DNA of 10,551 nt. Origin: a virus (taxonomy: Duplodnaviria > Heunggongvirae > Uroviricota > Caudoviricetes). This document shows, piece after piece, positions 656 through 9,961 of this stretch. The notes beneath the pieces are model-generated. The model made no database searches, was not told where the DNA came from, and saw nothing but the letters and a program-made list of their open reading frames with translations. Location: the IMG/VR virus record IMGVR_UViG_2529292736_000008, one strand, 5' to 3'. The first letter of the stretch is position 1. Each line of letters starts with the position of its first letter. A program made the position numbers and the translations under genes.

Positions 656-1003
656 TTATATGCGGATTCCAGCGCGTTCCGTTCGTTTCGGGTGCTTCCA
701 GTTGATACCTTCAAGAAGCATGGATAACTGAGCCGGAGTAAGGTGCACCTTGCCGTCACGGGTGACTGGCCAGACGAAGCGGCCCCGCTCCAGGCGTTTG
801 GTGAAGAGGCACAGTCCGTCACTGTCAGCCCACAACACTTTTATCTGGTCACCCCGGCGTCCGCGGAAGATGAACAGGTGTCCGGAGAACGGGTCATCCT
901 TCAGGACGTTCTGAACTTTTGATGCCAGGCCGTTAAAGCCATTTCGCATATCGGTGATACCTGCAACCAGCCAGATACGCGAACCTGCAGGGAGAGATAT
1001 CAT
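656..1003 (-). CDS. tnpB: IS66-family accessory protein TnpB (115 aa)
   Basis: 115-aa ORF of characteristic IS66 Orf2 size and sequence (WLVAGITDMRNGFNGLA...), start overlapping the tnpA stop. Confidence 0.9.
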   Translation of the reverse strand: MISLPAGSRIWLVAGITDMRNGFNGLASKVQNVLKDDPFSGHLFIFRGRRGDQIKVLWADSDGLCLFTKRLERGRFVWPVTRDGKVHLTPAQLSMLLEGINWKHPKRTERAGIRI

Positions 1004-1680
1004 CAGTGGCTGCTCCCTTTTATTTCGCGGATAAGTGTCTGTAATAACGCCGGCGTCAGTTTACCTTTAAGCCTGAGAGTTCCGGCCGGCAGAACCAGCT
1101 CACAACACAGACTGTCGGACGGTGTATTTATCTGCTCTGGTTCCTGTGCGGGGGCCGGGATTTTATTATCCGGCTCCGGCGTTAACGTCACGGGAAGCAG
1201 TGCCGGCATATTTTTTCCGGAAGGCAGCAGGCCACCTTTCCGGTATTGATGGCGCCAGTTGAAGAGCTGGTTATCGTTGATTCCGTTTTCCCGGGCGATC
1301 TGCGCCACACAGGCTCCGGGCTGCAGTGACTGCTCCACTAAGGCGATTTTAAACTCATAAGGGAAGTTGGGCCGCCGGGGACGTTTTTTTACCACGGGGG
1401 CTTCGGATATAACGGTGCTTTCAGGACGTACGACTGGTACCGTGGAAAATTGTCCGTAAAGGCAGGCATCAAGTTCCTGCTCCGACATGCCTGCGGGCAA
1501 AGGCCACGAAAGGCCAGCTCTCCGAAAGCGCACGAACATACTACAAACTGTTGATTTTGGTACACCCAGGCGACGCCCGGCCACAACCCGGGGTAAATGT
1601 TCTTCAAAGTGAAGACGTAAAGCTTCAGTGATCCAGGTCCGGTGTTTCATACGATAGTGTCCATTAAAAATGATGGACAT
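1003..1680 (-). CDS. tnpA: IS66-family TnpA (Orf1), 225-aa ORF; true start may be an internal Met (e.g. 1488)
   Basis: C-terminal half carries the IS66 Orf1 HTH-like motif ([52 protein letters not shown]). N-terminal ~64 aa is an extra HTH-like extension ([19 protein letters not shown]). Confidence 0.75.
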
Positions 1681-2574: not shown

Positions 2575-3175
2575 ATGCGTAAACTTTATGCCGCCATTTT
2601 GTCCGCAGCCATTTGTCTGGCCGTATCCGGTGCGCCTGCATGGGCATCTGAACATCAGTCCACGCTGAGCGCGGGGTATCTTCATGCCTTGACGAACGTT
2701 CCCGGCAGCGATGATCTTAACGGGATTAACGTGAAATACCGTTATGAGTTTACGGACACACTGGGGCTGGTGACGTCATTCAGCTATGCAGGAGACAAGA
2801 ATCGCCAGCTTACCCGTTACAGCGATACCCGCTGGCATGAAGATTCAGTGCGTAACCGCTGGTTCAGCGTGATGGCGGGGCCGTCTGTGCGCGTGAATGA
2901 ATGGTTCAGCGCGTATGCGATGGCGGGTATGGCTTACAGCCGTGTTTCGACTTTCTCCGGGGATTATCTCCGCGTAACTGACAACAAGGGGAAAACGCAC
3001 GACGTGCTGACCGGAAGTGATGACGGTCGCCACAGCAACACGTCTCTGGCGTGGGGGGGCTGGCGTGCAGTTTAACCCGACCGAATCCGTGGCCATTGAT
3101 ATTGCTTATGAAGGCTCCGGCAGTGGTGACTGGCGCACTGACGGTTTCATCGTGGGTGTCGGTTATAAATTCTGA
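2575..3175 (+). CDS. lom: Lom outer-membrane protein (Ail/Lom family); reading frame broken by a +1 frameshift in a G7 run (3053..3059). As written the ORF stops at 3075 (166 aa); the remaining 38 codons continue in the next frame to TGA at 3173..3175.
   Basis: N-terminal 160 aa match recalled lambda Lom ([37 protein letters not shown]...). After the G-run the +1 frame reads [38 protein letters not shown], the Lom C-terminus. RBS GAGAGG 5 nt upstream of ATG. Confidence 0.85.
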
Positions 3176-3200
3176 TTAGCCAGGTAACACAGTGTTATGA

Positions 3201-3229
3201 CAGCCCGCCGGTTCAGGCGGGCTTTTTGT
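3201..3229 (+). terminator. Rho-independent terminator downstream of lom
   Basis: Stem AGCCCGCC (3202..3209), loop GGTTCA, stem GGCGGGCT (3216..3223), then TTTTTGT. It overlaps the ATG at 3197 offered by the ORF track, so that start is rejected. Confidence 0.65.
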
Positions 3230-3238
3230 GGGGTGAAT

Positions 3239-6200
3239 ATGGCAGTAAAGATTTCAGGTGTACTGAAAGACGGCACAGGAAAACCGGTACAGAACTGCAC
3301 AATCCAGCTGAAAGCAAAACGTAACAGCACCACGGTGGTGGTGAACACGCTGGCCTCAGAAAATCCGGATGAAGCCGGGCGTTACAGCATGGACGTTGAG
3401 TACGGTCAGTACAGCGTTATTCTGTTGGTGGAAGGCTTCCCGCCGTCACATGCCGGGACCATCACCGTGTATGAAGATTCCCGACCCGGTACGCTGAATG
3501 ATTTTCTCGGTGCCATGACGGAGGATGATGCCCGTCCGGAGGCACTGCGCCGTTTTGAACTGATGGTGGAAGAGGTGGCGCGTAACGCGTCCGCAGTGGC
3601 ACAGAACACGGCAGCCGCGAAGAAGTCAGCCAGTGATGCCAGCACATCTGCCCGTGAGGCGGCAACCCATGCAACCGATGCTGCAGGCTCAGCACGTGCC
3701 GCCAGCACGTCAGCCGGACAGGCTGCATCATCTGCTCAGTCAGCATCTTCCAGCGCAGGAACGGCATCAACAAAGGCCAGTGAAGCATCGAAAAGTGCTG
3801 CTGCTGCAGAGTCCTCAAAAAGCGCGGCAGCTACCAGTGCCAGTGCCGCGAAAACGTCAGAAACGAATGCGGCAGCGTCACAAAAATCTGCAGCCACTTC
3901 TGCATCCGCCGCGACCACGAAGGCGTCAGAAGCTGCCACCTCAGCCCGGGATGCGGCGGCCTCAAAAGAGGCAGCGAAATCATCAGAAACGAACGCATCA
4001 TCAAGCGCCAGTAGTGCAGCTTCCTCGGCAACGGCGGCAGGAAATTCCGCGAAGGCGGCAAAGACGTCTGAGACAAACGCTAAGTCTTCTGAGACGGCAG
4101 CGGAACAGAGTGCCTCCGCAGCAGCAGACTCAAAAACAGCGGCTGCATCATCTGCCAGCGCCGCGTCAACAAGTGCCGGGCAGGCCTCAGCCAGTGCCAC
4201 CGCCGCCGGAAAGTCGGCAGAAAGTGCCGCATCGTCTGCTTCAACAGCCACAACGAAGGCTGGCGAAGCCACTGAACAGGCCAGCGCAGCAGCGAGTTCT
4301 GCTTCCGCAGCGAAGACATCCGAAACGAACGCGAAAGCGTCGGAAACCCGTGCAGAATCCTCAAAAACGGCTGCCGCATCGTCAGCCAGTTCGGCGGCGT
4401 CATCGGCATCATCTGCGTCTGCTTCAAAAGATGAGGCGACCAGACAAGCGTCAGCAGCGAAGAGCAGCGCCACGACGGCATCCACGAAGGCGACAGAGGC
4501 AGCTGGCAGTGCGACGGCGGCAGCACAGAGCAAAAGTACGGCGGAATCCGCGGCAACGCGCGCCGAGACAGCGGCAAAACGGGCAGAGGATATTGCATCC
4601 GCCGTGGCGCTTGAGGATGCGAGCACGACGAAAAAGGGGGTAGTACAGCTCAGCAGTGCGACCAACAGTACGTCTGAAACGCTGGCGGCAACGCCAAAGG
4701 CAGTAAAATCAGCCTATGACAATGCAGAGAAACGTCTGCAGAAAGACCAGAACGGCGCTGATATACCCGATAAGGGACACTTCCTGAACAACATTAACGC
4801 GGTCAGTAAAACAGACTTTGCTGATAAGCGCGGTATGCGTTATGTGCGGGTTAATGCTCCTGCAGGTGCAACATCTGGAAAATATTACCCTGTTGTTGTT
4901 ATGCGTTCTGCTGGCTCAGTAAGCGAACTGGCATCAAGGGTCATTATCACCACGGCAACGCGAACCGCAGGCGATCCGATGAATAACTGCGAGTTTAACG
5001 GATTTGTTATGCCTGGTGGCTGGACTGACAGGGGGCGTTATGCTTATGGCATGTTCTGGCAATATCAAAACAATGAACGAGCCATCCACTCAATAATGAT
5101 GAGTAATAAGGGCGATGATTTGCGCTCTGTGTTCTATGTTGATGGCGCTGCTTTCCCTGTTTTTGCGTTTATCGAAGATGGCCTGTCAATATCCGCACCT
5201 GGTGCTGATCTCGTTGTTAATGATACGACCTATAAGTTTGGGGCAACAAATCCGGCGACTGAATGTATCGCGGCGGACGTTGTCCTTGATTTTAAGAGTG
5301 GGCGTGGTTTTTATGAGTCTCATTCGTTAATCGTTAACGATAACTTGTCGTGCAAAAAACTTTTTGCCACAGACGAAATTGTAGCGCGTGGTGGTAATCA
5401 GATTCGAATGATAGGTGGGGAGTATGGTGCATTATGGCGTAATGATGGCGCTAAAACTTACCTGCTGCTTACCAATCAAGGTGATGTTTATGGTGGCTGG
5501 AATACATTAAGACCGTTTGCTATTGATAACGCAACCGGCGAACTGATTATTGGAACCAAACTGTCCGCAAGTCTGAACGGTAATGCATTAACAGCAACAA
5601 AGCTGCAAACGCCAAGACTGGTTTCTGGTGTTGAGTTTGATGGTTCCAAAGATATTACTTTAACCGCTGCGCATGTGGCTGCTTTTGCCAGAAGGGCAAC
5701 TGATACATATGCCGATGCGGATGGTGGCGTTCCCTGGAATGCCGAATCAGGCGCTTACAATGTCACCCGCTCTGGCGACAGCTATATTCTGGTTAACTTC
5801 TATACCGGAGTCGGAAGTTGCCGGACCCTGCAGATGAAGGCGCATTACAGAAATGGAGGTCTGTTCTACCGTTCCTCAAGAGATGGCTATGGTTTTGAGG
5901 AAGACTGGGCAGAAGTTTATACCTCGAAAAATCTTCCACCAGAAAGCTACCCAGTCGGCGCACCAATCCCGTGGCCATCAGATACCGTTCCGTCTGGCTA
6001 TGCCCTGATGCAGGGGCAGACTTTTGACAAATCTGCATACCCGAAACTTGCAGTGGCTTATCCGTCAGGCGTTATTCCTGATATGCGTGGCTGGACGATT
6101 AAGGGCAAACCTGCCAGTGGTCGTGCCGTATTGTCTCAGGAACAGGACGGCATTAAATCGCACACCCACAGCGCCAGCGCATCCAGTACGGATTTGGGTA

Positions 6201-6505
6201 CGAAAACCACATCGTCGTTTGATTACGGCACTAAATCCACGAATAACACCGGGGCTCATACGCATAGTCTGAGCGGCTCTACAAGCTCGGCTGGAGCACA
6301 CTCGCACGTTGATGGGCGCAGGTTTAATACAAGCACTTTTAAAGACACCTATCAGTATGGTTCTACAGCTGTCGGAAGTAACTCATACCAGGTACAAGGG
6401 GCGGTTGGTCTGGGCGTTGGTACGATGGCGAATACGAACTCTGCTGGCGCGCACACCCACTCACTGTCCGGCACTGCTGCAAGCGCAGGCGCACACGCAC
6501 ATTGA
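3239..6505 (+). CDS. stf: Side tail fibre protein Stf, 5' portion (1088 codons), truncated by IS629; stop codon TGA (6503..6505) is supplied by the IS629 terminus
   Basis: Starts [26 protein letters not shown]..., the conserved lambda Stf N-terminus (recalled). Long Ala/Ser/Thr-rich shaft, a central lower-GC module, then lambda-like C-terminal region GAPIPWPSD...GAHTHSLSG...AGAHAH. Confidence 0.85.
3590..4640 (+). repeat. Degenerate in-frame coding repeats (Ala/Ser/Thr-rich fibre shaft) inside stf
   Basis: Recurring units such as AAKTSETNA(K/A)...SAA(A/T)SAS at DNA ~3841, ~4050 and ~4310; GC-rich GCN/TCN codon runs. This composition explains the long spurious ORFs on other frames and strands. 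Confidence 0.5.
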
Positions 6506-6527
6506 ACCGCCCCGGGTTTCCTGGAGA
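6503..6527. repeat. IS629 terminal inverted repeat (stf-proximal end)
   Basis: TGAACCGCCCCGGGTTTCCTGGAGA; reverse complement of 7787..7811 is TGAACCGCCCCGGGAATCCTGGAGA. Confidence 0.85.
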
Positions 6528-6544
6528 GTGTTTTATCTGTGAAC

Positions 6545-7431
6545 TCAGGCTGCCAGATCATCGTTTCCGATGGAAGCATAATAAGCTTTTTCTGCTTCTG
6601 CCGGTGGGATATGGCCCAGCCTTTCCAGCAATCGTCGATTGTTATACCAGTCCACCCACGTGAGTGTGGCCAGCTCCACTTCTGTCCGGTTTTTCCAGCT
6701 CTTACGGTGTATTACCTCCGCTTTGTAAAGGCCATTGATGCTCTCCGCCATCGCGTTGTCATACGAGTCACCAGTACTTCCTGTTGATGCCAGTAATCCG
6801 GCTTCCTTAAGCCGCTGTGTGTAGGCCAGCGATACATACTGAGAACCTTTATCACTGTGATGGACTGTGCCGGACGGTCGACGGGCCCATAACGCCTGCT
6901 CCAGAGCATCCAGCACGAATGTCGTTTCCATAGACGATGAGACCCGCCACCCCACGATGTATCCGGCAAACACATCAATGATGAACGCCACATAGACGAC
7001 CCCCTGCCATGTGCTGACGTAAGTAAAATCAGCCACCCACAACTGGTCAGGACGTTCTGCCACAAACTGACGGTTTACGCGGTCGCCTGCGGCAACGGCT
7101 TTCCGGCTGACGGTAGTGCGGACCTTTTTACCCCGGAGAACACCGGCAAGTCCCATAACCGCCATGAGGCGCGCCACTGTACATCTGGCTACCCTGATTC
7201 CTTCCCGTAACAACTGACGCCAGACTTTACGCACACCGTATACCTGATGATTCCCATCGTATACGCGCAGTATCTCTTTCTTCAGCCAGTCATCGCGCTG
7301 CGCACGGGCACTGCGTTTATCAGGATGATGTCGCTGTTGCTGACAGTGTAATACGTTGACGGGGCAATATGTAGTTCACTGCATACCGGTCCGACCCCGT
7401 ACAGCTTACGCAGCTTATCCAGCAGTGGCAT
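6545..7431 (-). pseudogene. IS629 transposase OrfB (DDE integrase domain), frameshifted near 7345..7352; longest intact ORF is 6545..7234 (229 aa from GTG)
   Basis: ATG at 7431..7429 opens [28 protein letters not shown], which then runs into a stop. The following frame continues HCQQQRHHPDKRSARAQRDDWLKKEILRVYDGNHQVYGV-RKVWRQLL... through the DDE catalytic region (LWVADFTYV...HHSDKGSQY...YDNAMAES). The two halves are in different frames. Confidence 0.8.
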
Positions 7432-7757
7432 CACTTTTTCCAGAGGCGGTCGAACTCCGCCTTCGCAAAATAAGCGGAAGCCTGGCGAAGGATATCGTTA
7501 CTGCGGCGCAGTTCACGATTTTCACGTTCCAGCTCTTTCAGACGCTGACGTTCAGCGGTGGTGAGCCCGCCATCACCGCCTCCGGTATCCCGCTCATGCT
7601 GGCGTACCCAGACACGCAGAGTCTCCGGTGTACAGTCAATCTTTGGGGCAATGGAACAAATTGCCGCCCACTGTGAGTCATATTCGCCCTGACTTTCCAG
7701 AACCATACGAATCGCCCTCTGACGGACTTCGGGGGAAAAACGAGTATTTTTAGTCAT
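7431..7757 (-). CDS. IS629 transposase OrfA (108 aa, HTH)
   Basis: [30 protein letters not shown]..., IS3-family OrfA with C-terminal leucine-zipper-like region; stop TGA overlaps the orfB ATG (TGATG). Confidence 0.9.
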
Positions 7758-7786
7758 CCTGTTTACCTCTTTCTCAGGGAGTTTAG

Positions 7787-7811: not shown

Positions 7812-7949
7812 CATACTGTCGGTATTGGTGCACACACGCACTCCGTTGCGATTGGTTCACATGGACACACCATCACCGTTAACGCTGCTGGTAACGCGGA
7901 AAACACCGTCAAAAACATTGCATTTAACTATATTGTGAGGCTTGCATAA
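7812..7949 (+). pseudogene. stf: stf 3' remnant (last 45 codons of side tail fibre gene, separated from the body by IS629)
   Basis: Reads (H)[44 protein letters not shown], matching the recalled lambda Stf C-terminus; stop TAA overlaps the tfa ATG (TAATG). Confidence 0.85.
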
Positions 7950-8533
7950 TGGCATTCAGAATGAGTGAACAAGCACGGACCATAAAAATTTATAATCTGC
8001 TGGCCGGAACTAATGAATTTATTGGTGAAGGTGACGCATATATTCCGCCTCATACAGGTCTGCCAGCAAACAGTACCGATATTGCACCACCAGATATTCC
8101 TGCTGGCTTTGTGGCTGTTTTCAACAGTGATGAGGCATCGTGGCATCTCGTTGAAGACCATCGGGGAAAAACGGTTTATGACGTAGCGTCAGGGGACGAG
8201 TTATTTATTTCTGAACTCGGTCCGTTACCGGAAAATGTTACCTGGTTATCGCCGGAAGGGGAGTTTCAGAAGTGGAACGGCACAGCCTGGGTGAAGGATA
8301 CGGAAGCAGAAAAAATGTTCCGGATCCGGGAGGCGGAAGAAACAAAAAACAACCTGATGCAGGTAGCCAGTGAGCATATTGCGCCGCTTCAGGATGCTGC
8401 AGATCTGGAAATTGCAACGGAGGAAGAAACCTCATTGCTGGAAGCCTGGAAAAAGTATCGGGTGTTGCTGAACCGTGTTGATACATCAACTGCACCTGAT
8501 ATTGAGTGGCCTACGAACCCTGTCAGGGAGTAA
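7949..8533 (+). CDS. tfa: Tail fibre assembly protein Tfa (194 aa), intact
   Basis: [54 protein letters not shown]...[13 protein letters not shown]; near-identical in length and sequence to recalled lambda Tfa; coupled to the stf stop. Confidence 0.9.
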
Positions 8534-8582
8534 TCATTGGGATTATGCCGCAGCACGTCTTAAGCAAGAACGTGCTGCGGTT
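8366..8582 (+). repeat. Direct repeat copy 1 (~217 bp): tfa 3' end (last ~55 codons) plus downstream hairpin
   Basis: Aligns by eye with 9415..9632 at roughly 85-90% identity, including exact blocks CGTGTTGATACATCAACTGCACCTGATATTGAGTGGCCT and CCTGTCAGGGAGTAATCATTGGGATTATGCCGCAG. Confidence 0.8.
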
Positions 8583-8587
8583 GGATG

Positions 8588-9256
8588 CTATTTTTTCCCT
8601 GAAGCGGAAAACATTACTACAGTACCTTGAACCTTGGTTTTAACATTCTCGAAATGCTCTGAGAGTATATGTGTTAAGCCTTCTTCGGAATCTTTTGTGT
8701 TTGAAAAGATGCCTTTCTGATTGTAAATGCGCATCAGTTTTTGACCGAAGCTATTGTGCACAACTCCATCGCCAAGAATTGTGGCTCCGTATAGAGTTCC
8801 ATCGTCAGTTAAGGCCTGCGCCGCATTGCGTATTACACAGCTTTTTGTAGATATATTTCCAGGCAGGCAGTGAAGAAGGTAAAACATGGAAATGGAATCA
8901 AATTGACCATGTAACGCCGCGGGATAAGGTTCAAAAACATCATGGCTAATTTTATGTTTAATTTTTGATTCCCCAGCCCTTGTAGATGCCGCGTTCAGGC
9001 TAGCTTCGTTCAAATCCATTAAAGATATCAGACTACTCTCAGGTACGTGAGTAAGGTAAAACCCAGTTCCAACACCAATATCCAGATGGTTGTTACCTAC
9101 ATGTTCCAGAAAGTGTGGAAGAAGGTGTTCCTTTGTAGGACATCCCCATGCAAGCCGATTTGATACTCCCAAAACCCACCAGTCATAAAGCTTTAGGGTA
9201 AGTGGTGTGTAAATTTTAGCCCCATCATCTGTGTTTTTTTTCATTGATTTCACCAT
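8588..9256 (-). CDS. Putative class I (Rossmann-fold) SAM-dependent methyltransferase, 222 aa; AT-rich cargo gene
   Basis: Motif I LDIGVGTGFY (hh[DE]hGxGxG), acidic end of beta-2 (ISLMDLN), motif II/III-like FDSISMFYLLHCLP and LTDDGTLYGATIL. No DPPY/NPPY or PC-Q DNA-methyltransferase motifs, so the substrate is unclear. GC content visibly lower than the flanking phage genes. Confidence 0.7.
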   Translation of the reverse strand: MVKSMKKNTDDGAKIYTPLTLKLYDWWVLGVSNRLAWGCPTKEHLLPHFLEHVGNNHLDIGVGTGFYLTHVPESSLISLMDLNEASLNAASTRAGESKIKHKISHDVFEPYPAALHGQFDSISMFYLLHCLPGNISTKSCVIRNAAQALTDDGTLYGATILGDGVVHNSFGQKLMRIYNQKGIFSNTKDSEEGLTHILSEHFENVKTKVQGTVVMFSASGKK

Positions 9257-9285
9257 GTTATAGTTTTATTTGTGAATTAAATCAA
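9257..9285 (-). promoter_or_regulatory. Candidate sigma70-like promoter upstream of the methyltransferase gene (-35 TTGATT, 17-bp spacer, -10 TATAAC)
   Basis: Minus-strand reading TTGATT(9285..9280)-N17-TATAAC(9262..9257) directly abutting the first ATG. If used, translation would start at the second in-frame ATG (9244..9242) on a near-leaderless mRNA. Motif match only. Confidence 0.3.
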
Positions 9286-9312
9286 TTATGGCGATGAATT
9301 ACAAGGGGTTAA

Positions 9313-9582
9313 ATGCTGCCGCAGCATAGCGATATTGAAATAGCCTGGTATGCTTCGATACAGCAGGAGCCGAATGGCTGGAAGACCGTCACCACACAGT
9401 TCTACATCCAGGAATTCAGTGAGTATATTGCGCCACTGCAGGATGCTGTAGATCTGGAAATCGCAACGGAGGAAGAAAGATCGTTGCTGGAGGCATGGAA
9501 TAAATATCGGGTATTGTTGAATCGTGTTGATACATCAACTGCACCTGATATTGAGTGGCCTGCAAATCCTGTCAGGGAGTAA
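9313..9582 (+). CDS. tfa' - chimeric small ORF (89 aa): unrelated 35-aa N-terminus fused to a duplicated Tfa C-terminal domain
   Basis: C-terminal 54 aa ([53 protein letters not shown]) parallel the Tfa C-terminus at 8372..8533. ATG preceded by AAGGGG 4 nt upstream. May be a remnant or an expressed mini-Tfa. Confidence 0.5.
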
Positions 9583-9632
9583 TCATTGGGATTATGCCGC
9601 AGACACGTCGTATGCAGGAACGTGCTGCGGTT
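9415..9632 (+). repeat. Direct repeat copy 2 (~218 bp) of tfa 3' end plus hairpin
   Basis: See 8366..8582. Confidence 0.8.
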
Positions 9633-9696
9633 AGTTTGTGAGCTTTCGATAGTGGTTGTTATTTTTGCCCTTATTTGTTCCGGAGGCCATGGTTCA

Positions 9697-9867
9697 ATGG
9701 TCCGTCTGCCCCCTGTGGTGATGTCAGCAAAATCAGCCACTGCGCGAACCACAATAGCCCGGGAAGATGCTGAAGATCACCAGGTAAAGCTGTCAGCGCA
9801 GAAACTGGAAGAACTGCTCGCATCAATGGTTAAGGATGAGGTTGATCGCAATGATGGGATTTATTGA
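9697..9867 (+). CDS. Hypothetical small protein (56 aa)
   Basis: ATG at 9697 with GGAGG (9682..9686) 10 nt upstream; ORF ends 95 nt before a strong terminator hairpin. The track's 93-aa version starts at a TTG inside the repeat hairpin and is less plausible. No recognisable domain. Confidence 0.35.
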   Translation: MVRLPPVVMSAKSATARTTIAREDAEDHQVKLSAQKLEELLASMVKDEVDRNDGIY

Positions 9868-9961
9868 CGTCAGCGAGAGCAGAAGGAAGAACTGAATAAC
9901 CTGAATGATTTACGCTCAATCAGAGCGATGGCGATTAGCGGCAATCACGCTCGATAAAATT

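Follow-up and report, generated by a model that had tools for sequence, protein, structure and literature searches.

The tfaX-type reading frame of a decayed lambdoid Escherichia coli prophage: a probable relic of fusion between two unrelated phage genes

How did an 89-aa reading frame near the end of a lambdoid prophage come to finish in a Tfa C-terminal domain, while beginning with residues that share nothing with the Tfa encoded upstream of it, and is it a working gene? A sequence-only reading of this DNA had left two possibilities, a recombination scar or an expressed mini-chaperone. We analyzed the whole stretch of 10,551 nucleotides (IMG/VR record IMGVR_UViG_2529292736_000008, Caudoviricetes), referred to below as the window. 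It is the tail end of a decayed lambdoid E. coli prophage and contains the following features.

656-1680, minus strand: IS66-type element with TnpA/TnpB-like ORFs, which cuts the J gene
2575-3075 and 3017-3175: the two ORFs of a frameshifted lom (frameshift at about 3020-3075)
3197-6505: 5' part of stf, the side tail fibre gene, whose 3' remnant ends at 7947
6506-7762 (approximate ends), minus strand: IS3-family insertion splitting stf, with an ALIL frameshift pseudoknot at 7360-7476 (Rfam)
7949-8533, plus strand: intact lambda-type tfa of 194 aa, a full-length relative of the C-terminal part of TfaX
8357-8582, plus strand: left-hand tfa 3' repeat, in which the intact tfa ends and a hairpin follows
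8588-9256, minus strand: class I SAM-dependent methyltransferase (K-12 ybcY, PHROG 2132), an AT-rich cargo gene
9257-9312: divergent spacer of 56 bp with a promoter-like site for the methyltransferase
9303-9308, plus strand: Shine-Dalgarno-like AAGGGG, 4 nt 5' of the tfaX ATG
9313-9582, plus strand: tfaX-type chimeric ORF, 89 aa plus stop (ORF list; PHROG 2341 match)
9313-9417, plus strand: tfaX codons 1-35, 5' fragment of a PHROG 3893-type 79-aa gene
9406-9632, plus strand: right-hand tfa 3' direct repeat, made of tfaX codons 32-89, the stop and a hairpin (about 9596-9631)
About 9679-9957: DUF4376-domain pseudogene remnant with an internal stop, just 3' of tfaX (PGAP, identical ST131 locus)
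After the DUF4376 remnant, minus strand: Rha regulator gene

The window yielded no tRNA genes, and IS009 and ALIL were the only Rfam families that reached threshold there. IS009 (RF02111), which is catalogued as an sRNA gene, overlies the 3' half of the tfa coding region: it scored 223.8 bits on tfa (8292-8490) and 112.5 bits on tfaX (9336-9539), the latter narrowly short of its 117-bit gathering threshold. The same pattern was seen in K-12 tfaD and tfaX (locus L002, 5857-6055 and 6899-7102). The IS009 model probably captures protein-coding sequence and not an RNA gene.

The existence of the reading frame with a ribosome-binding site was borne out. Its ATG is directly preceded by an in-frame TAA, and the AAGGGG occupies the same site as the ribosome-binding site of the 79-aa gene described below (AAGGAGG in the Klebsiella copy). 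The Tfa C-terminal domain at its end was likewise confirmed. Pfam Caudo_TAP (PF02413) matched TfaX residues 31-86 over profile positions 75-130 of 131 (E 6e-25), and profile positions 1-74, the N-terminal fibre-binding domain, had no match in TfaX. BLASTP aligned TfaX residues 27-89 with residues 132-194 of the upstream Tfa (51/63 identities, 81%), and no alignment to this Tfa was found before residue 27. Residues 123-174 of Mu TfaU aligned with TfaX 32-86 (E 1.8e-9). In the DNA, positions 8357-8582 recur in direct orientation at 9406-9632 with about 89-90% identity, and the repeat extends beyond the stop codon into a strong hairpin common to both copies (the left one at about 8547-8581; -24 to -28 kcal/mol, z -4.35). 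The AF2 model of TfaX predicted two long helices over residues 28-71 with a pLDDT of around 80-90, and a fold search of this model against the PDB returned no structural neighbour (best E = 2). Scans with NCBIfam and PADLOC gave no match for TfaX or the 79-aa protein.

The gene itself is already catalogued. By sequence comparison, the window ORF can be identified as the uninterrupted ortholog of E. coli K-12 DLP12 tfaX (b0563, old name ylcE). The 61-aa K-12 product, annotated as 'protein TfaX', is identical to window residues 1-61, and the ribosome-binding site, the spacer and the order tfaD - ybcY (minus strand) - tfaX are shared. The K-12 gene carries TGA instead of TGG at codon 62, whereas the window copy is uninterrupted at 89 aa; the K-12 sequence also differs beyond about codon 85, and ybcY is frameshifted in K-12 (a methyltransferase pseudogene) while the methyltransferase in the window is intact. 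TfaX further matched PHROG 2341 from end to end (positions 1-88 of 88, E 4e-61), a family with no assigned function whose library entry does not mention a chimeric make-up. Members of PHROG 2341, or the module, are present in the temperate phages 2G7b, ev243, PhiR26_1, Turner and Kati. Of 5426 complete E. coli genomes, 3443 contain the 121-nt stretch that runs from the ribosome-binding site to the junction, and with a single exception its identity in them is 95% or higher. Many ST131 genomes match the surrounding 1.4 kb at 100% identity; in them, PGAP marks the 59 C-terminal codons as a pseudogene ('tail fiber assembly protein, missing N-terminus'). The gene is known as tfaX or PHROG 2341, and what is new here is confined to the recognition of its N-terminal parent.

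The first ~35 residues had been described as unrelated to Tfa and novel. They are indeed unrelated to Tfa; they are not novel, since they match the N-terminus of PHROG 3893 (profile positions 2-36 against TfaX residues 3-37, E 3.3e-7). A Citrobacter/E. coli member of this 79-aa family is 44% identical to TfaX in BLASTP (E 2e-10), and tblastn against phage genomes found identities to TfaX residues 1-37 of 75% in phage Ayreon, 51% in Klebsiella phages and 35-39% in HK225, mEp390 and HK140. Start and ribosome-binding site positions are shared between PHROG 3893 genes and tfaX, and residues 2-35 align at 35-51% identity. In an alignment of 34 members, the first ~36 residues follow the pattern MPRxxDIExAW..EPNGRRTVTT..F.xEL, which TfaX also shows. 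Free-standing genes of the family include a 79-aa ORF of Klebsiella phage Kp4882-3 and the 99-aa gp28 of HK225, and the length of 79 aa is kept across Klebsiella, Raoultella, Enterobacter, Citrobacter, Salmonella, Erwinia and Pantoea.

The C-terminal half of the 79-aa family has invariant residues A46, N47, W49, D59, S61 and G65 and a PNGG end. AF2, run on a 32-sequence alignment, predicted a compact a1-b1-a2-a3-b2-b3 domain (pLDDT 87, pTM 0.75), of which TfaX keeps only a1-b1-a2, that is, helix 1, strand 1 and helix 2. Foldseek of this model against the PDB gave no significant neighbour (best E 0.07); its best-ranked matches were mostly winged-helix DNA-binding domains (TM 0.45-0.54), which is only suggestive of a winged-helix-like fold for the modelled family. 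NCBI records call the family 'DNA polymerase V', a name that is probably wrong. We also considered whether the family could be a diverged mini-Tfa, in which case TfaX would be a domain swap between relatives. Residues 46-69 of the Klebsiella member had weak matches to Pfam Phage_tail_APC (E 0.08) and PHROG 2381 (E 0.003); only 4/34 members reach E < 1, and this origin was rejected, with an hhalign probability of 0.3% against the Tfa alignment.

Free-standing members of the family have genomic surroundings of their own. A Peptidase_S24 (UmuD-like) gene lies 2 nt downstream of member P0177 in 5/5 contexts, and this pair is located near the prophage end, after oppositely oriented cargo (gtrABC or an acyltransferase). 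The pair's position is downstream of tail genes. The truncated member P0205 (53 aa) has a similar position, and its downstream gene is without a Pfam hit on record. The LexA-box-like palindrome TACTGT-N8-ACAGTA, found in nine fetched loci of which eight are family copies, lies 18-37 nt upstream of the 79-aa gene in these eight. The family units occupy the following positions in the fetched loci.

L005, 3967-4571
L166-L170, 3964-4631
L004, 4001-4300

The 79-aa and UmuD-like pair has the look of an uncharacterised prophage unit, possibly under SOS control. It is a by-product of this analysis that may be more interesting than tfaX, and it merits a study of its own. The window contains no Peptidase_S24 ORF 3' of tfaX, and no LexA box or LexA-box-like palindrome, including in the spacer at 9257-9312.

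Alignment of the window with Ayreon, Citrobacter, Klebsiella and the upstream tfa placed the junction within 9406-9424, at codons ~32-36. Over this stretch the two parents are similar, the 79-aa gene reading ..TC-AGG-A-T-AG.. and tfa reading ..ATGCAGGTAGCCAGTGAG... With a probability of only 0.3% in hhalign for a link between the parent families, TfaX is a true chimera of unrelated families. This junction, together with the position of the module between two tfa 3' repeats, supports the recombination-scar interpretation.

The only unfused copy was found in phage Ayreon. There, a tfa 3' remnant and hairpin are followed by the last ~35 nt of the methyltransferase gene and then by a tfaX-type spacer, ribosome-binding site and start, and the frame runs on into degenerate sequence of the 79-aa family rather than into tfa. 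Ayreon represents the unfused state after a secondary, clean deletion of the methyltransferase. The copy is degenerate and the methyltransferase is lost; an unfused methyltransferase together with an intact 79-aa gene was present in none of the 79 IMG/VR loci.

The fusion is completely linked to the methyltransferase. Among the IMG/VR methyltransferase loci with upstream sequence, 79/79 carry the 5' end of tfaX. In 153 of 156 loci, tfa 3' sequence and the hairpin adjoin the methyltransferase on its left. The left homology starts with a full-length tfa in 73 loci and inside the last 30-230 nt of tfa in another 73. The left and right Tfa C-terminal peptides assort freely, TNPVRE occurring with ANPVRE, EEPDTM, TSPAE or TGPIIE, in an ungapped comparison that is disturbed by indels and is to be read qualitatively only. 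The methyltransferase has a GC content of 38-43%, compared with ~49% for tfa, and is 99-100% conserved across 80 viral contigs, under purifying selection. The PHROG profile begins only at residue 5, which makes the ATG at 9244 its probable real start. A consensus scan placed its promoter-like site on the minus strand of the spacer (-35 at 9312-9307, -10 at 9290-9285). It matched no specific NCBIfam family and no defence model.

The cassette was also observed in other surroundings: behind a truncated DNA invertase in ST131 (L001, 8708-10083), behind unrelated, non-Tfa tail genes in phage ev243 (L176, 3732-5536), and, as the methyltransferase-tfaX pair, at the close of a P2-like prophage after gpU/X/D (L180, 1-3636). 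These contexts indicate that the cassette moves independently of the lambda-type stf-tfa module.

The comparisons show that the start codon, ribosome-binding site and first ~35 codons of tfaX come from a PHROG 3893 gene, and that the last ~54 codons, the stop and the hairpin come from the 3' end of a lambdoid tfa. One ancestral illegitimate crossover would have joined the parents where both read ..AT-CAGG-A---CAG.., creating a cassette made of a tfa 3' end, a hairpin, the methyltransferase on the minus strand, the spacer, the fusion of the 79-aa 5' part with the tfa 3' part, and a second hairpin. As this cassette begins and ends in tfa 3' sequence, any lambdoid tfa could then recombine homologously with it and insert, move or delete it, which would explain both the intact tfa before the cassette here and the different tail modules elsewhere. 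The single crossover and the later mobility are inferred from the anatomy of the locus and were not observed as events. Most copies would still have an open frame because the cassette is young and hardly varies from place to place, and not from a need for the protein. The protein, if made, would consist of half a winged-helix-like domain joined to the Tfa trimerisation helices, without the fibre-binding domain. On this basis we regard tfaX as probably a gene-fusion relic, a recombination scar that hitch-hikes with a cargo gene. Several observations run counter to this reading: about three quarters of the copies are open (86-89 aa) with a good ribosome-binding site, the 5' segment keeps at least 95% identity in 3443 genomes, the tfaX module is carried by viable temperate phages, and the SNP counts and the K-12 transcription data given below leave room for moderate constraint and for expression.

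Comparison of copies showed how the frame has fared. Among 78 loci picked solely by similarity to the methyltransferase, tfaX is open in 58 and disrupted in 20, with at least 10 different lesions, including nonsense mutations at codons 12, 29 and 62, several frameshifts, a deletion and a replacement of the C-terminus. The methyltransferase, which is 2.5-fold longer, is disrupted in 7/78 loci picked solely by similarity to TfaX, with four lesions. In common variants of 61, 82, 101 and 106 aa, the C-domain is cut short or exchanged for other sequence; a 40-aa form, seen in one IMG/VR variant, results from a deletion that fuses tfaX codon 16 to the DUF4376 remnant. In NC101, the methyltransferase is kept intact and tfaX is nearly all deleted, with ~30 nt left. 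Search for stand-alone homologues had been suggested as a check on the ORF, and these proved to be abundant. Their abundance does not show function, because the ORF is fully linked to the methyltransferase and often broken.

Distinct SNPs were counted in three regions, with p values from a binomial comparison with neutrality.

Methyltransferase: 20 synonymous, 26 nonsynonymous or nonsense, p 0.001
tfaX codons 1-61: 11 synonymous, 22 nonsynonymous or nonsense, p 0.06
tfaX codons 1-31: 4 synonymous, 10 nonsynonymous or nonsense, p 0.28

The SNP classes of tfaX and the methyltransferase did not differ significantly (Fisher p = 0.48), and the tfaX counts are too small to separate neutrality from moderate constraint. 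On these thin data, the tfaX patterns do not differ from neutral, and purifying selection specific to the ORF is not shown.

It is rather unlikely, though the best placed of the alternatives, that what is conserved is the DNA and not the protein, with 9257-9420 acting as the promoter and regulatory region of the methyltransferase, the tfa 3' repeat and hairpin acting as a terminator or recombination handle, and the open frame being incidental. The promoter-like site in the 56-bp spacer, the strong hairpins after both tfa 3' copies and the clustering of cassette ends in tfa 3' sequence are all in keeping with it, as is the binding of the K-12 ybcY/tfaX spacer by RNA polymerase and H-NS in vitro (PMC3946193). 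The window was also compared with the diverged P0022 lineage (83% identical), whose methyltransferase and spacer are 99% identical to those of the window (L179, 2276-3270, against 8588-9582). Even here the spacer is identical at 55/56 positions, and the methyltransferase differs at 7/669 nt. However, the divergence jumps at the tfaX ATG, codons 1-35 differing at 7/105 nt (omega ~0.55), which means that these codons are not under tighter DNA-level constraint than their neighbours. The intact methyltransferase of NC101, next to almost no remaining tfaX, also argues against this explanation, which largely overlaps the relic reading and does not replace it. The N-terminus of P0022 TfaX reads MMPRH, as in phage Ayreon. 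This pattern suggests that the start codon marks a further recombination breakpoint, or that an unfused copy was the source of a conversion.

The remaining alternatives need a translated product. RNA polymerase binding to the spacer and a 2.55-fold rise of the K-12 tfaX transcript in mixed biofilms (PMC3646849) indicate that transcription does occur, and translation possibly follows; this evidence is at the RNA level and all from the truncated K-12 allele. In the window, a consensus scan of the spacer found no promoter for tfaX, only the minus-strand site of the methyltransferase, and detected a plus-strand promoter-like site inside tfaX at 9401-9429. The promoter ATGGCA-15-TTAAAT, proposed for K-12 tfaX in the SELEX paper (PMC3946193), was rejected, as its -10 overlaps the ATG and would give no translatable mRNA. 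Expression as a protein with some function is possible.

The mini-chaperone offered by the sequence-only reading would be a TfaX that is translated and aids fibre folding or trimerisation through its Tfa C-terminal helices, in this prophage or in co-resident lambdoid phages. We consider it very unlikely, although the Tfa C-domain is complete in the window copy, the ribosome-binding site and ATG are present, AF2 predicts the two long helices, and the ORF occurs in active phages with most copies open. In Tfa, fibre binding belongs to the variable N-domain and trimerisation to the conserved C-terminal helices (PMC9608196), and we propose that TfaX, which does not have the fibre-binding domain, cannot act as a specific tail-fibre chaperone. 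An intact full-length tfa lies 800 bp upstream; stf is split by the IS3-family element, which leaves the Tfa-like proteins of this prophage without a client fibre; and the common variants affect the C-domain itself. The C-part has a low omega (dN/dS) of 0.17 with a dS of 0.62 between P0022 and the window, but this value is inherited through exchange among real, recombining tfa alleles and is no evidence of selection on TfaX. The mini-chaperone thus found no support, and the interpretation given by the first reading, taken as a whole, is partly supported.

The chance is slimmest that the fusion was kept as a small protein with a new function, retained for Tfa association and hindering competing or superinfecting lambdoid phages in assembling their fibres, or serving another regulatory role: a very wide distribution with a high share of open copies, the biofilm response of the K-12 transcript and the enrichment of tfaX (7.2) under itaconic acid in a genome-wide chemical-stress screen (PMC5064937) speak for it, and against it stand the K-12 allele without half of the helical domain, the wild-type growth and biofilm of a K-12 ylcE/tfaX deletion (PMC3646849), the many independent null alleles, and the failure to find a selection signal, a matching PADLOC defence model or a PDB neighbour for the model. 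A specific form of this idea, also highly improbable, is that the orphan helices of translated TfaX enter mixed oligomers with the Tfa of other lambdoid phages and tune or sabotage the side-tail-fibre assembly of competitors; if true, the fusion would be an exapted small protein and not a scar.

For the relic reading that we prefer, the main value of the tfaX result lies in annotation. About 63% of complete E. coli genomes carry the ORF, labelled 'tail fiber assembly protein' or pseudogene. The ORF is a fusion of two unrelated genes, and differs from a normal Tfa as well as from a Tfa simply truncated at its N-terminus. The cassette in turn would be a clean example of the conserved tfa 3' end serving as a recombination handle that carries cargo between prophages.

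Compared with known systems, TfaX shares with Tfa/Caudo_TAP proteins (lambda Tfa, Mu U, PDB 5YVQ chain B) the conserved C-terminal helical region. Those proteins are encoded directly downstream of a co-oriented fibre gene, whereas tfaX is separated from stf by the real tfa and the antisense methyltransferase. Compared with PHROG 3893 proteins, TfaX is without residues 37-79 (helix 3, two strands and the PNGG end), continuing as Tfa sequence from ~36, and without the downstream Peptidase_S24 gene and the LexA-box-like palindrome. The methyltransferase resembles phage morons, being likewise AT-rich, oppositely oriented, independently promoted and located after tail fibre genes, in the position held by gtrABC or an acyltransferase in other prophages. 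Unlike in morons, the cargo here comes with a fused gene fragment and lies between duplicated tfa 3' ends.
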